64,000 nt of DNA from Shigella phage Sf24: sequence record MF327008. One strand, written 5' to 3'. How positions within the stretch are numbered: position 1 is the stretch's first letter; every line of letters starts with the position of its first letter. The notes under the pieces are model-generated. The model saw only the letters and a list, made by a program, of their open reading frames with translations, was not told the origin of the DNA and ran no database searches. Below, one piece after another: positions 34,863 to 39,356 of this stretch. Made by a program: the position numbers and the translations under genes.

Positions 34863-35288
34863 TTATTCCTTAAAGTGTGCTTTCAGCATTTGATACAAGG
34901 ACCATGCCTGTTCATTATTTTCAATAGTAACTTTCATGACTGGGAATTCTGTGAAATCTTCTATTTGTTCTTGCTCTTGCTCTTCCTGCTCTTGCTCTTC
35001 AACTGCCTGATATGGATTTTCCACTTCATCAAAGAACCCAGCTTCGTTAGTAGAAAGCCAGATAAAGTTTTCGTCAAGGATATCACCATGTGTTGCATAT
35101 CCAACTGTGCCAGTAGATGTCACAATTTTAGTAGGACGACCAAGATGGTCAACATCTAAAATTTTAAAAGGATGCATACCTAAACGGCGTGCATAGATTC
35201 CGTTATCAGTATGGTCTTTAATAAAATTTTCTTGAGCTTGTTTATTTTTAAATTGATACCATTTATTAACTTCAAATTTAATAGCCAT
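34863..35288 (-). CDS. Hypothetical protein, 141 aa, with acidic EQ repeat tract
   Basis: ORF track; size/position suggest T4 goF but not verified. Confidence 0.45.
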
Positions 35289-35503
35289 TAATAAATTTCC
35301 TTCCAGTAAGTTGTACCGTCTTCAGTGATTTCACGGAATACACCATAAATCGGTTGTTTATCACCAACCTTTTCATACACATAAACCGAAGTCAAGTGAG
35401 TAAACTTAACGGTATGTTCCTTTTGAACTACTACCAAATCTGGATCGAATAATACATCTTCAAATTCGTCATTAGTGCAGTTCTGAACAATTTTACGTTT
35501 CAT
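35288..35503 (-). CDS. Hypothetical protein, 71 aa
   Basis: ORF track; size/position suggest T4 cef but not verified. Confidence 0.4.
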
Positions 35504-35516
35504 TACAATTTCCTCA

Positions 35517-35798
35517 TTAATTGAACAGTGGAGCGATGCGTTTCAGAAGAGTAGCAGCACCTTTGGCAAATTTTACATCATGAAAAACAGTTTCTTCTTC
35601 CGTTACAACACGAGCTTTAATGTTTTCACAATCCCAATTTTTGCGAACAATCTTCAAAAGCTGCAGTAAATCTTTACATTCAGCAATATCGATAACACAT
35701 CCACGAGGATCTTCCATTATCGCACGATAACCGTAAGCCATACCATAATCATTGAAAGATTGCTCGATGATAATTAAATTTTCCATTTTATTCTCCAA
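35517..35798 (-). CDS. Hypothetical protein, 93 aa
   Basis: ORF track. Confidence 0.4.
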   Translation of the reverse strand: MENKMENLIIIEQSFNDYGMAYGYRAIMEDPRGCVIDIAECKDLLQLLKIVRKNWDCENIKARVVTEEETVFHDVKFAKGAATLLKRIAPLFN

Positions 35799-35809
35799 GT
35801 TGTTTTCTG

Positions 35810-35880
35810 TATCAGTAGTTGATATTGATATAGTACCATAATCAACTACTGATGTATATAGTTTTATGAAAAAATTTTAA
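35810..35880 (-). promoter_or_regulatory. Early promoter variant with 11-bp inverted repeat
   Basis: Conserved TGGTACTATAT start block and A/T UP element; CAGTAGTTGAT ... ATCAACTACTG palindrome flanks the -10. Confidence 0.45.
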
Positions 35881-35893
35881 ACTTTATGCAAAT

Positions 35894-36313
35894 TTATGCT
35901 AAAGCTGCTTCGCACCATTTTTTAATTTGGAATTCAGGAACTACCATGAACTGGCCTGCAAAAACAATATTGTAGAGCTTGACACCATCTTCTACCCAAC
36001 GGTCCGAAATAAAACCAGCGACTTGATTCGTTGTCCATGGAGTTCCATCTGTTGCTGCCGCAATTGTGAATTTATGGTCTTTTACAACTAAAACTGAAGA
36101 ACAAAGTTTCCATTTAAATGCGCTTTCTTCTGGCTCAATGAATTGGCCTGAGACGTAACCAATGTTACCATCGGAGTCACGAACTTTAACCTCGTTACGA
36201 CCAAAAACTGGATCACTTACAGAAAGAACTTCAACCAACTTTCCTGCAACTTTAGAACGAGAAGCAACGGATACATATACGTAATCACCAGTAGAGAGAT
36301 TTACAATATTCAT
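35894..36313 (-). CDS. Hypothetical protein, 139 aa; paralogue family member A
   Basis: ORF track; shares N-terminal ASRSKxAGxLVEV and C-terminal WVEDGxKLYNIVFxGxFxVV motifs with the next ORF. Confidence 0.5.
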   Translation of the reverse strand: MNIVNLSTGDYVYVSVASRSKVAGKLVEVLSVSDPVFGRNEVKVRDSDGNIGYVSGQFIEPEESAFKWKLCSSVLVVKDHKFTIAAATDGTPWTTNQVAGFISDRWVEDGVKLYNIVFAGQFMVVPEFQIKKWCEAALA

Positions 36314-36325
36314 AATAATAATTCC

Positions 36326-36799
36326 TTAAGCTTTACGAGGAGAAGCATAACGAGTGATTTCAGATTCTTCAACAACCCGGAAGTCACCTAAGAATACGAT
36401 ATTGTAGAGCTTTTCACCATCTTCAACCCATTGGTCTGTGATGAAGCCACACATCCTATCAGTTTTACTTGGACCAACGAAATCATCAATATAATCGAAT
36501 TCTTCATCAGTTACAAATTCAACGCCTTTACACAACGCCCATTTAAATTGTGCATTAGACTCAGTGGATTCAACTTCTTCAACAGAAGCAAAATGAGAGC
36601 TAACACGAGTTTCCAGAAATTTAGGACTTACGTAAGCGTACTGAGTTTCAGTTTTTCCAGAACTAGGAATGATTCGAACTTTAACTTCTTTAACACGACC
36701 AGTACCATTAGTACGAAGTCCTACCACTTCAACTAGACGACCTGCAGCTTTAGAACGAGATGCAGATGATACACGCTTAATTTCACCGATAGTAATCAT
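36326..36799 (-). CDS. Hypothetical protein, 157 aa; paralogue family member B
   Basis: ORF track; same motifs as 35894..36313. Confidence 0.5.
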   Translation of the reverse strand: MITIGEIKRVSSASRSKAAGRLVEVVGLRTNGTGRVKEVKVRIIPSSGKTETQYAYVSPKFLETRVSSHFASVEEVESTESNAQFKWALCKGVEFVTDEEFDYIDDFVGPSKTDRMCGFITDQWVEDGEKLYNIVFLGDFRVVEESEITRYASPRKA

Positions 36800-36834
36800 A
36801 ATTTTTCTCTCTTTGTTGTTAAGATTTATTCTCC

Positions 36835-36872
36835 ATGAGAGCCATTATAACAGGCTCTCTATAAAGTAAACT
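36835..36872 (-). promoter_or_regulatory. Early promoter with hairpin over the -10 region
   Basis: Minus strand GTTTAC ... TATAAT; GAGAGCC/GGCTCTC inverted repeat embraces the -10. Confidence 0.45.
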
Positions 36873-37366
36873 TAATTAAGGATATTAATTACTGCACTAC
36901 GTGGAACTACACTAAAATCACCTGCATGAACAACGTTCAGAAGTTCAACACCGTCTTCAATCCACTGATCAGTTACCCATCCACTCACTGGACCTGCGAA
37001 CGGACGTCGAATTGAAACAGCTTTACACAACAAATCAGTAGGCTCAATAGGCTTAACCAGAGTACCGTACATACAAGCGATATCCATATCAATACAGATG
37101 TCTTTAACGGGTTCTACTTCTTCAATCAACAGTTCAAAGTCGGTGCTTGGAAGGGCGGTAGTAGAAATTGTACCGTATGAATTTTTAATTTCTAAGAATA
37201 ACCAAGGGCCTTCAGCTTGTTTGATGAAGTTAACAATAGTGAAACTATTACCTTGAGTGGCGCCTAAAATTTCACAAAACTTTTCATAAGCTCGCACTGA
37301 AGCACCATACCAGTTGATTTGCTTTTCGTCTTTCAGGATGTAAGTAGCTGTAGTACTGATATTCAT
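36872..37366 (-). CDS. Hypothetical protein, 164 aa; paralogue family member C (C-terminal domain only)
   Basis: ORF track; C-terminal WIEDGVELLNVVHAGDFSVV matches the motif of the two preceding ORFs. Confidence 0.5.
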   Translation of the reverse strand: MNISTTATYILKDEKQINWYGASVRAYEKFCEILGATQGNSFTIVNFIKQAEGPWLFLEIKNSYGTISTTALPSTDFELLIEEVEPVKDICIDMDIACMYGTLVKPIEPTDLLCKAVSIRRPFAGPVSGWVTDQWIEDGVELLNVVHAGDFSVVPRSAVINILN

Positions 37367-37378
37367 GATGTTTTCCCC

Positions 37379-37882
37379 TTAATCTAAGGTAATAAAGCCT
37401 TTTAATTCGGCATGTGACTTGCGGAACATTACTTGATGACCGCCAATGATAACTTGGTCATCAGGTACTTCGTATACAGCGAGATAAAATCCTTTAGAAG
37501 CTAATTCTTCACGCTCTTCTCGTGTGAACCATCTCATCATATCATATTCGCTAGCGAAAGCAAAATGATAAAGAGCTATAAACCATCCTGGAATATAGTG
37601 ATCTACGCCTACATATTCTTCTTTCTCAAAATTAGTATTAATTGCTATATTAGCATTTTTAACTAATAATTTGTCTTCATGCGGCACAGGAATTCTTTTA
37701 TTATCATTACTATGATGCATAAAATTGGGTCTGTCATAACCTACGCGTAATAACCACTCTTCACTCCATGAATCTATTATACTCCTGTACGGAGTTATTT
37801 GAACACAAAGATCTCGACGTATTGTTATAGCATCTTCATAATTAAGAATACTAAACGATGATTCAACACGATAAATTTTCAT
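37379..37882 (-). CDS. Hypothetical protein, ~167 aa; start reassigned to Met with GAGGA RBS
   Basis: ORF track ORF 37379..37921 starts inside the promoter; Met at 37882 has a Shine-Dalgarno. Confidence 0.45.
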   Translation of the reverse strand: MKIYRVESSFSILNYEDAITIRRDLCVQITPYRSIIDSWSEEWLLRVGYDRPNFMHHSNDNKRIPVPHEDKLLVKNANIAINTNFEKEEYVGVDHYIPGWFIALYHFAFASEYDMMRWFTREEREELASKGFYLAVYEVPDDQVIIGGHQVMFRKSHAELKGFITLD

Positions 37883-37894
37883 TTTATTATCCTC

Positions 37895-37950
37895 AGTAGC
37901 TATGGTGTTATAGTACCACAACTAACCGAGGAAGTAAACAACTTTTTATC
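37895..37950 (-). promoter_or_regulatory. T4-type early promoter
   Basis: Minus strand TTTACT - 17 bp - TACTAT. Confidence 0.55.
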
Positions 37951-38629
37951 GTTTTGTTGGAAGAGATAGAGGATCGCAATCTTCCTCTGATGGAGCATCT
38001 TCAAGACCCATAGCATATCGCAAAGCGTACTTCATCATCAGGATGTCTTTCGCACAGTCATGAATAGAATCATGTGCAACGAATCCATCTAAAGTTCCCT
38101 TTGGAAGAGGACATGTGGTCATATCACGAACAAGCAGAAGTGCTTCAATTCTGGTACGAATATCACGCTGATTCCAAAATTTACAAGGTTCTAACTTAAA
38201 TGTATCAAGCTCATTCTCGGAAACGCCGTTAAGACGTTGAATATCGCGAATGAGATCGACTAAAATTGGAAAATCAAACGACATTCCACGGCACCAGCCT
38301 TGAGATTTCCAAGGATCGATATTATGCGCATTGATGTAATCATTAAATTTTGCAATACCATCGATAGTGCTTACATCTTCATCTGATGGCGCAATATTTT
38401 TTCGAGCTTCAGGAGATTGATTCTTCCACCATTCGATAGTGCTTTTAGTAAAAAGACGATGTCCTTTTTGGCTTTTTAAATCAAATTTGATTTTAATGCC
38501 ACGTGAAACTAATTCATCAAATGTTTCAACGACTTCTGGATTAGGGTCAAAAGCAATTACAGCCAAATCAATAACAGCTGCTTTTTCACCGCTTCCCATT
38601 GTTTCAAAATCTATAATAAAATCAAACAT
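37946..38629 (-). CDS. dexA: Exonuclease A (DnaQ-like 3'-5' exonuclease), 227 aa
   Basis: ORF track; MFDFIIDFETMGSGEK (DEDD exo I motif) and HDSIHDC (exo III); size as in T4 DexA. Confidence 0.85.
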   Translation of the reverse strand: MFDFIIDFETMGSGEKAAVIDLAVIAFDPNPEVVETFDELVSRGIKIKFDLKSQKGHRLFTKSTIEWWKNQSPEARKNIAPSDEDVSTIDGIAKFNDYINAHNIDPWKSQGWCRGMSFDFPILVDLIRDIQRLNGVSENELDTFKLEPCKFWNQRDIRTRIEALLLVRDMTTCPLPKGTLDGFVAHDSIHDCAKDILMMKYALRYAMGLEDAPSEEDCDPLSLPTKR

Positions 38630-38904
38630 TAAATTTTCCTTGCTAAATCGCGAATTTGACCTACAGTATAATCTTGGATATAAACTTTATTAATAGGCTC
38701 ATCAATAAATTTTGCCATAGATTCAATATCTTTTTGTATCTCTTCAAGACTGTATACTATCTTTAAAGCTTTTTCGCGAATAGTAATATTTTCAGGACTA
38801 GAATTTTCCTCAATGACAGCTTTAACATTTGTCATAAGAGATTTAAACTGATGCAAACTTAATTCAATCATTAATAACCGCCTTATAAAGATGGCTAATT
38901 TCAC
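38629..38904 (-). CDS. Hypothetical protein, 91 aa
   Basis: ORF track. Confidence 0.4.
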   Translation of the reverse strand: MKLAIFIRRLLMIELSLHQFKSLMTNVKAVIEENSSPENITIREKALKIVYSLEEIQKDIESMAKFIDEPINKVYIQDYTVGQIRDLARKI

Positions 38905-39124
38905 CTAAAACATAATCACTGATTGTGACAGTTTTCACTTCACCACAAAAGAATTCTAACGCAATTAAATCTCGTTCAATTTCTTCTAATTGAAGCATTA
39001 ACTTGCCAGATTCAATTTTTACATTTCTACGATTTTTACTATAAGCTATTTCATAAATTTCGCTCACTTTATCTTGAAGCAGATAAAACTGGTCTTTAGT
39101 TATTTCCACGAATAGCTTCCTCAA
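38864..39124 (-). CDS. Hypothetical protein, 86 aa
   Basis: ORF track. Confidence 0.4.
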   Translation of the reverse strand: MRKLFVEITKDQFYLLQDKVSEIYEIAYSKNRRNVKIESGKLMLQLEEIERDLIALEFFCGEVKTVTISDYVLGEISHLYKAVIND

Positions 39125-39356
39125 ATTTAATTAGTAATTTACAGACACTTTCATCTAGTGTAATTACCGTATCTGTATTACTGTGATATGATTGTTTTTC
39201 AATTCGTTTAATTGCTAATATAGTATCACTTATAAGATAAAGCTTATGAAGGAGCTCAGCTCCTGTTACCATAACATCGAGATTATCTTGCTTATTAGTA
39301 TGCTTCCTTATACCATCTATTAGACGATTTAAATATTTTGAATTGATGTTAATCAT
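39096..39356 (-). CDS. Hypothetical protein, 86 aa
   Basis: ORF track. Confidence 0.4.
   Translation of the reverse strand: MININSKYLNRLIDGIRKHTNKQDNLDVMVTGAELLHKLYLISDTILAIKRIEKQSYHSNTDTVITLDESVCKLLIKFEEAIRGNN

Follow-up and report, generated by a model that had tools for sequence, protein, structure and literature searches.

Three adjacent motB-family genes in Shigella phage Sf24 and the predicted SH3/Tudor-like domain common to their products

Three adjacent open reading frames (ORFs) of Shigella phage Sf24 encode small proteins that end in the same sequence block, which raises the question of what these proteins are and what the common block does. The ORFs lie in a stretch of 64,000 nucleotides of sequence record MF327008, which we call the window and which belongs, judging from its sequence, to a Tequatrovirus (T4-like) phage. 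A sequence-only reading had described them as a tandem family of paralogous early genes of unknown function, each with its own early promoter, of a kind typical of host-takeover or anti-defence arsenals. The three ORFs were found directly next to one another, all on the minus strand, at exactly the following coordinates.

36872-37366, minus strand: motB.1 orthologue, 164 amino acid residues
36326-36799, minus strand: motB orthologue, 157 amino acid residues
35894-36313, minus strand: second motB-like copy (RB51ncORF010c/RB69p010 type), 139 amino acid residues

It is very probable that these ORFs form a motB.1-motB-motB-like cluster with modular products that are to be read as proposed below. 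The identification is based on the match of the window to the phages teqhad and RB51, the gene order in RB51 and T4, the Pfam family PF17613, PHROGs 1671 and 2333, and the 46% identity to MotB of T4. The function can no longer be called unknown, since the genes are the known motB.1, motB, and motB-like genes and MotB of T4 has been characterized (PMC6070864, PMC7827196). The sequence-only reading had named two outcomes that would speak against it, identification as known T4 proteins and a lack of statistical support for the shared motifs; the former was found, and the latter was not.

The 3.2-kb region around the three genes showed 98.6% identity to Escherichia phage teqhad and 95.5% identity to RB51, and matched 693 records of T4-like phages. 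The gene order was cef, an ORF, the motB-like gene, motB, motB.1, motB.2, and dexA. This order matches that of RB51, where the genes are annotated in the order of transcription as motB.1, motB, and "RB51ncORF010c, similar to motB", with motB.2 and dexA upstream and an unnamed ORF followed by cef downstream. RB68, teqhad, and Sf23, like RB51, have all three genes annotated, and motB.1 and motB are annotated in T4, where the third copy is absent. The location between cef and dexA, in a Tevenvirinae genome with 95-99% identity to Tequatrovirus genomes, is an early, non-essential region of T4-like phages devoted to host takeover, and in this respect the sequence-only reading is supported.

Searches of the protein families gave a consistent assignment. 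The 157-residue MotB and the 139-residue MotB-like protein matched phrog_1671 (MotB-like transcriptional regulator) with E-values of 5e-68 and 1e-50, respectively, and the 164-residue MotB.1 matched phrog_2333 over residues 1-164, its full length, with an E-value of 1.1e-82. The gathering score of the Pfam family PF17613 "motB", 25 bits, was passed by all three proteins, with 72.3, 140.3, and 35.0 bits for the proteins of 139, 157, and 164 residues, respectively. MotB covered positions 2-158 of the 162 positions of this profile, and the 139-residue protein matched it in two stretches with the SRSK motif present; the match of MotB.1 was confined to positions 78-153, which correspond to the C-terminal domain. 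The full MotB architecture, consisting of a KOW-like head with SRSKxAG and the C-terminal domain, was found in the 157- and 139-residue ORFs and was not found in the 164-residue ORF, which represents the MotB.1 branch. In comparison with MotB of T4, the 157-residue protein was collinear, with 46% identity and an E-value of 2e-47, and the 139-residue protein was more distant, with 37% identity and 28 gap positions. The window motB.1 showed 100% nucleotide identity to that of Shigella phage Sf23.

The sequences show genuine paralogy of the three ORFs, with a common C-terminal domain whose similarity is far beyond chance. In a three-way alignment, the C-terminal block was present in all three as GFISDRWVEDGVKLYNIVFAGQFMVV, GFITDQWVEDGEKLYNIVFLGDFRVV, and GWVTDQWIEDGVELLNVVHAGDFSVV. 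The motif given for this block by the sequence-only reading holds for all three proteins with one exception: MotB.1 carries GW where GF had been written. The motif of the C-terminal barrel is G[FWY][IV][ST]D[QR]W[VI]EDG..L.N[IV]V..G.[FY].V[VI]. As had also been pointed out, the N-terminal block, ASRSK[VA]AG[KR]LVEV, is confined to the 139- and 157-residue proteins, and the N-terminus of MotB.1 is unrelated to it (LSm/SH3-like).

The pairwise comparisons agreed with this division. BLASTP aligned the 139- and 157-residue proteins over their full length with 40% identity and an E-value of 3e-29, and MotB.1 aligned with each of the other two only in the C-terminal domain, with E-values of 6e-11 and 7e-11 (about 1e-10); together with the PF17613 scores, these values bear out the proposed paralogy. 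The homologous region exceeded the quoted motif, measuring 56 residues in MotB.1 and 73-75 residues in the MotB types, which have a hairpin insertion of 16-19 residues within the C-terminal domain. When a profile of the C-terminal domain was searched against the six-frame translation of the whole window, the three ORFs were detected with E-values of 6e-36, 1.5e-33, and 1e-26, and no further copy of the domain was found, the next best match having an E-value of 0.25. The alignment, which had been suggested as a check, supported the homology, and a profile search of other proteins, likewise suggested, gave relatives in other T4-like phages. At the DNA level, the paralogues within the window were only 71-77% identical over 48-93 nucleotides, and this low similarity indicates that the duplication is old. 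Recent gene conversion between the copies was rejected because the identity was this low and limited to short stretches.

To characterize the domains, AlphaFold2 models of MotB.1 and MotB were built from family alignments. Both models had a mean predicted local distance difference test score (pLDDT) of 80, and in each of them a linker with pLDDT values below 50 (MotB.1 residues 86-107, MotB residues 66-83) connected two all-beta domains that were modelled with confidence. The domain layouts of the three proteins are as follows.

MotB.1 (164 residues): LSm/SH3-like N-terminal domain, 1-83; disordered acidic linker, 84-108; shared C-terminal barrel, 109-164
MotB (157 residues): basic KOW-like N-terminal domain, 1-62; acidic disordered linker, 63-84; C-terminal barrel with hairpin insertion, 85-157
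MotB-like copy (139 residues): KOW-like N-terminal domain with the SRSK motif; almost no linker; MotB-type C-terminal domain

The N-terminal domain of the MotB.1 model contained strands at residues 8-11, 42-49, 55-61, 67-73, and 80-82 and a helix at residues 26-37, with pLDDT values of 83-88, and its assignment is based on these strands and this helix of the model only. The N-terminal five-stranded bent beta-sheet and the full-length match to PHROG 2333 place the protein in the MotB.1 subfamily. In both models, the shared C-terminal domain consisted of five strands, the last two of which were separated by a helix of three residues, and the conserved motif fell on strands 2-4 and on the tight DG and AG turns of these strands. 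In an OB-fold, with the topology beta1-beta2-beta3-helix-beta4-beta5, the helix follows strand 3 and precedes strand 4. With its helix before the last strand, the modelled domain resembles SH3 barrels in topology, and it did not have the characteristics of the OB-fold/cold-shock group (SCOPe b.40.4.5). The models suggest an SH3/Tudor-like barrel of five strands for the shared domain, in place of the OB-fold described in the literature.

Fold matches were made with the whole models, and the source domain of each match is not separable; a fold search of BFVD placed members of the family at the top, and no informative match followed. Searches of all PDB sequences with the C-terminal profile and the full MotB profile gave nothing better than E = 1; by sequence, the family has no relative of solved structure. 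Small SH3-like beta-barrels, such as the KOW domains of NusG and Spt5 and the Tudor, PWWP, chromo, and Sm/LSm domains, have no sequence relationship to the shared domain in this profile search (E ≥ 1), and the likeness is at the level of the fold alone, from which neither homology nor a common ligand follows.

MotB of T4 provides the functional background. This protein is made early and in abundance, shows tight, non-sequence-specific binding to both host DNA and modified phage DNA, is co-purified with H-NS and StpA by way of DNA, relieves the repression of part of the H-NS regulon, is toxic when expressed alone, and doubles the burst size (PMC6070864, PMC7827196). In the work of Patterson-West et al. 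(2021), MotB changed the footprint of H-NS and led to the up-regulation of approximately 75 host genes, one third of which belong to the H-NS regulon (PMC7827196). The same study described 102 phage homologues, stated that MotB and MotB.1 have a common C-terminal domain and different N-terminal domains (PMC7827196, section 3.2), and noted genomes with extra copies, including RB69 with two motB genes (PMC7827196). The combination of one C-terminal domain with different N-terminal domains was also published in 2025 (PMC12152347). The gene family, the sharing of domains, and the multiple copies have thus already been published, and the name MotB-like is already in public records. The value of the present analysis as a discovery is small, and its use lies in three corrections, which concern the fold and charge of the C-terminal domain, the motB.1 records of T4 and RB69, and the presence of one promoter instead of three.

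MotB of T4, a member of PF17613 and PHROG 1671 (Patterson-West et al., 2018, 2021), has the same genomic position and strand as the window motB, with an early promoter directly upstream, and the same two-domain layout, in which a KOW-like head containing SRSKAAG and an acidic linker are followed by a C-terminal domain built around DQWVEDG. With 157 residues vs. 162, the window MotB is the shorter protein and, owing to its much more acidic C-terminal domain, it is acidic overall, with an isoelectric point (pI) of 5.4 compared to 9.2 for T4 MotB. The N-terminal domain of MotB had a net charge of +8 (pI 10.7) in the window protein and +6 in the T4 protein. The net charges of the C-terminal domains were -7, +1, +1, and -2 for the window MotB, T4 MotB, the 139-residue copy, and MotB.1, respectively, and the pI of the whole MotB.1 protein was 4.5. 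The 139-residue copy differs from T4 MotB in having neither a linker nor the IIPxxGK loop and in that its N-terminal domain (residues 1-60), which retains SRSKVAG, is not basic, with a net charge of -1. These features suggest that the capacity of this copy to bind DNA has been changed or lost.

The charge distribution suggests that DNA binding by MotB is mainly N-terminal, and its strongly basic KOW-like domain would be the main DNA-contacting part. MotB is also said, in papers that cite work by Son et al. (2021, NAR 49:9229), to compact DNA. The C-terminal domain is acidic or neutral in the three window proteins, which points to a common module for protein interaction or self-association; it would then not be a DNA-binding OB-fold. 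The paralogues may join this common module to different nucleic-acid-binding heads, which would bind DNA in MotB and perhaps RNA in the LSm-like MotB.1, and would be weakened or altered in the 139-residue copy.

The transcription of the cluster was examined by scanning positions 35200-39200 of the minus strand for the T4 early consensus (GTTTAC, a spacer of 15-18 nucleotides, and TATAAT). One strong site was found.

36871-36844, minus strand: the only strong T4-early-type promoter of the cluster, a perfect GTTTAC-16-TATAAT located 45 nucleotides upstream of the motB ATG

RB51 shows conservation of this promoter sequence, and in T4 a TATAAT is retained at the corresponding place in the alignment. 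The 139-residue ORF starts 12 nucleotides past the motB stop codon, and motB.1 starts 12 nucleotides past the motB.2 stop codon. These gaps leave no room for a promoter, and co-transcription is the simplest explanation. The claim that each of the three ORFs has its own early promoter was therefore not sustained, with a single perfect site before motB and 12-nucleotide gaps before the other two ORFs. A generic sigma-70 scan gave no excess of sites over shuffled sequence (15 found vs. 13.8 expected). In the arrangement that we propose, motB and the motB-like copy would form one transcription unit from the single early promoter at 36871-36844, and motB.1 would be transcribed with motB.2 from promoters further upstream.

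Several points weigh against the interpretation as a whole. The function of MotB is transferred from the T4 protein, to which the window protein is only 46% identical, and the 139-residue copy and the full-length 164-residue MotB.1 are known from their genes alone. A weaker promoter-like site, GTTCAA-17-TATAAT at 37804-37776, lies inside motB.2, approximately 410 nucleotides upstream of motB.1, and could, despite two mismatches, give motB.1 a start of its own. The C-terminal domain of T4 MotB has a charge of +1 and is not acidic, so that contact of this domain with DNA is possible. Furthermore, a published HHpred analysis (PMC7827196) assigned the C-terminal domain to the OB-fold and allowed for DNA binding by either of the two domains.

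The last two points lead to a different explanation, in which all three proteins are nucleoid-associated DNA binders with a cold-shock-like OB-fold at the C-terminus and the paralogues are variants of DNA coating that differ in dosage or specificity. The HHpred matches of the MotB C-terminal domain to eIF5A (PMC7827196, section 3.1), the tight DNA binding by T4 MotB (PMC6070864), and the slightly basic C-terminal domain of the T4 protein agree with such a role. We consider it rather unlikely, because an SH3/Tudor-like, acidic C-terminal domain shifts the likely DNA binding to the basic KOW domain and suggests a protein partner.

Returning to the modular reading, a more far-reaching version of it can be put forward tentatively. 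The shared domain may be a phage-specific Tudor/SH3-like module for partner binding or oligomerization that has been recombined with different heads (KOW, or one or two LSm-like heads) and with a movable D-x-D-[IV]-A-[SC]-x-Y peptide, forming a combinatorial toolkit against one host target. If this were so, the only functional tests of MotB.1 to date may have been carried out on a protein that lacks the greater part of the module owing to a one-nucleotide insertion in the T4 reference.

Full-length versions of the second motB-like copy occurred in 161 phage records, among them that of the Mosigvirus RB69, and nearly all of its close homologues (81-99% identity) had a constant length of 139 residues. 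Its direct counterpart is RB69p010/RB51ncORF010c, "MotB-like transcriptional regulator"; the RB69 gene has the same length, lies directly downstream of motB, and is 84.5% identical in nucleotide sequence and 85.6% identical in amino acid sequence. The ratio of nonsynonymous to synonymous substitution rates (dN/dS) between the window gene and the RB69 copy was 0.18. By these measures, the 139-residue copy is not a decaying duplicate. That the extra copies are redundant or decaying duplicates without a function of their own might be proposed from the absence of this copy in T4 and the interrupted reading frames of motB.1 in the T4 and RB69 reference records. This explanation is highly improbable in view of the 161 intact records and the dN/dS value, the intact motB.1 in 13 other T4-type records (11 T4 genomes, RB55, and RB59), and the nearly invariant C-terminal core of MotB.1.

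The interruptions of motB.1 were traced to single nucleotides. The T4 reference (AF158101/NC_000866) has an extra G in the W-I-E-D-G codons of motB.1 (ATTGGAAGATGG vs. ATTGAAGATGG), which cuts the reference MotB.1 (NC_000866.4, 7291-7650) to 119 residues and 13.80 kDa, and the remaining C-terminal domain is conserved in another frame. The extra base is absent from the 13 records mentioned above, among which T4T annotates a MotB.1 of 143 residues. Compared to the window gene, motB.1 of RB69 (NC_004928.1, 8376-8872) carries two insertions of one T, both in homopolymer runs, and is split into a 132-residue ORF and the 29-residue ORF RB69p012. The 29-residue "Category 3 peptide" of RB69 (PMC7827196) was rejected as a separate mini-gene, since it is the frame-shifted end of motB.1. 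As read from these alignments, indel artefacts or differences between stocks account for the 119-residue motB.1 of T4 and the 29-residue peptide of RB69, and the gene itself is intact. The intact MotB.1 would have 143 residues in T4 and about 164 residues in RB69, compared to the annotated 119 residues and the "29-aa peptide".

This correction bears on the published work on MotB.1. Kim et al. (2025) placed its N-terminal domain in an LSm-like fold family with GoF and Frd.2, and found that the deletion of motB.1 in T4 caused no laboratory phenotype, with burst size and latent period unchanged (PMC12152347). Their constructs were gene-synthesized from NC_000866.4, and MotB.1 was reported as a 13.8-kDa monomer (PMC12152347). 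This source sequence and mass indicate that the MotB.1 protein used in their assays probably lacked most of the shared domain.

MotB.1 of T4 (PHROG 2333; Categories 2 and 4 of PMC7827196) is the positional orthologue of the window MotB.1, located between motB.2 and motB, and the two proteins have the same LSm/SH3-like type of N-terminal domain and a near-invariant C-terminal core. They differ in that the window protein is of the 164-residue RB69/Sf23 type with IDMDIACMYGTLVKP, whereas the T4 type has 143 residues and lacks IDMDIACMYGTLVKP. In about half of 339 matching phage records, a share estimated from a spread sample of the ranking, the window motB.1 was aligned only over approximately 94 nucleotides (36891-36984). 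This segment encodes the C-terminal core of MotB.1 and showed about 89-94% nucleotide identity, with the rest of the gene unalignable in those records. Such an isolated match fits strong constraint on the core, or an exchange of modules at its boundary.

The peptide that distinguishes the two types of MotB.1 lies in the disordered linker.

37049-37093, minus strand: peptide motif IDMDIACMYGTLVKP, conserved in the alignment, MotB.1 residues 92-106

In the MotB.1 model, this region had a low pLDDT and a short helix at residues 94-97. A related motif, D.D[ILV][AVTE][SCH].Y, occurred in 85 of 227 cluster representatives bearing the C-terminal domain, and its location varied: it preceded the N-terminal head in 63 of them, directly preceded the C-terminal domain in 13, and had another position in 9. 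T4-type MotB.1 and the majority of MotB proteins did not contain it. From this distribution, the peptide looks like a movable short linear motif and is a candidate for binding a partner.

The distribution of the family was analyzed by searching 1.84 billion representative proteins with a profile built from 21 C-terminal-domain sequences. The search yielded 30 clusters at E ≤ 0.001, of which 23 had E ≤ 1e-10; two of the 30 were proteins of 842 and 1393 residues with repeated short matches. The divergent small members that were inspected had the C-terminal domain and a KOW-like head. Two divergent members were traced to Yersinia phage MHG19 and Enterobacter phage Entb_43, both T4-like phages of enterobacteria, and from these two there was no sign that the family reaches beyond T4-like phages. 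Among the relatives, proteins of approximately 143-145 residues had an LSm-like head and the C-terminal domain, those of 164-169 residues had the linker motif between the two, those of 177-183 residues had the motif N-terminal to the head, and those of 245-250 residues apparently had two LSm-like heads. Three metagenomic relatives were chimeric, with the N-terminal domain and linker of T4- or RB51-type MotB joined to the C-terminal domain of the 139-residue copy, which suggests recombination between tandem paralogues.

Early, non-essential, duplicated, and modular genes with domain shuffling among their relatives might also be viewed as a diversifying anti-defence arsenal, in which each copy acts against a different host immune system, and silencing by H-NS can itself be regarded as a defence that MotB counteracts (PMC7827196, discussion). 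Such an arsenal is improbable here: there is no experimental link to any dedicated defence system, the burst size and latent period are unaffected by the motB.1 deletion in T4 (PMC12152347), the family has a narrow distribution among phages, and the C-terminal core is almost invariant across MotB.1-type proteins, unlike what rapid, target-driven diversification would produce. A PADLOC scan was empty, its library not covering anti-defence genes. The anti-defence part of the sequence-only reading is thus left without support, and the literature points to remodelling of the nucleoid and H-NS by MotB.

In addition to the promoter, two RNA hairpins were predicted in the cluster.

36837-36859, minus strand: stem-loop with a 7-bp stem (GAGAGCC/GGCTCTC), -19.1 kcal/mol, z = -3.7; its loop holds the -10 hexamer of the motB promoter
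35811-35853, minus strand: 13-bp hairpin with an internal 5-bp extension, -20.7 kcal/mol, z = -4.6, 41 nucleotides past the stop codon of the 139-residue ORF

T4 has a stem at the same place as the first hairpin, GGGACC/GGTCCC, with the same z-score of -3.7; both sides of the stem are changed and the pairing is kept. The stem-loop would form only in read-through RNA from motB.1, and may be an element for processing, stability, or attenuation. The second hairpin lies directly ahead of the next ORF (35517-35798). It is not followed by a U-run and was not reported by an intrinsic-terminator scan, and the lack of a U-tract indicates that it is not a canonical intrinsic terminator. It is possibly a 3'-end or stability element of the motB/motB-like transcript.

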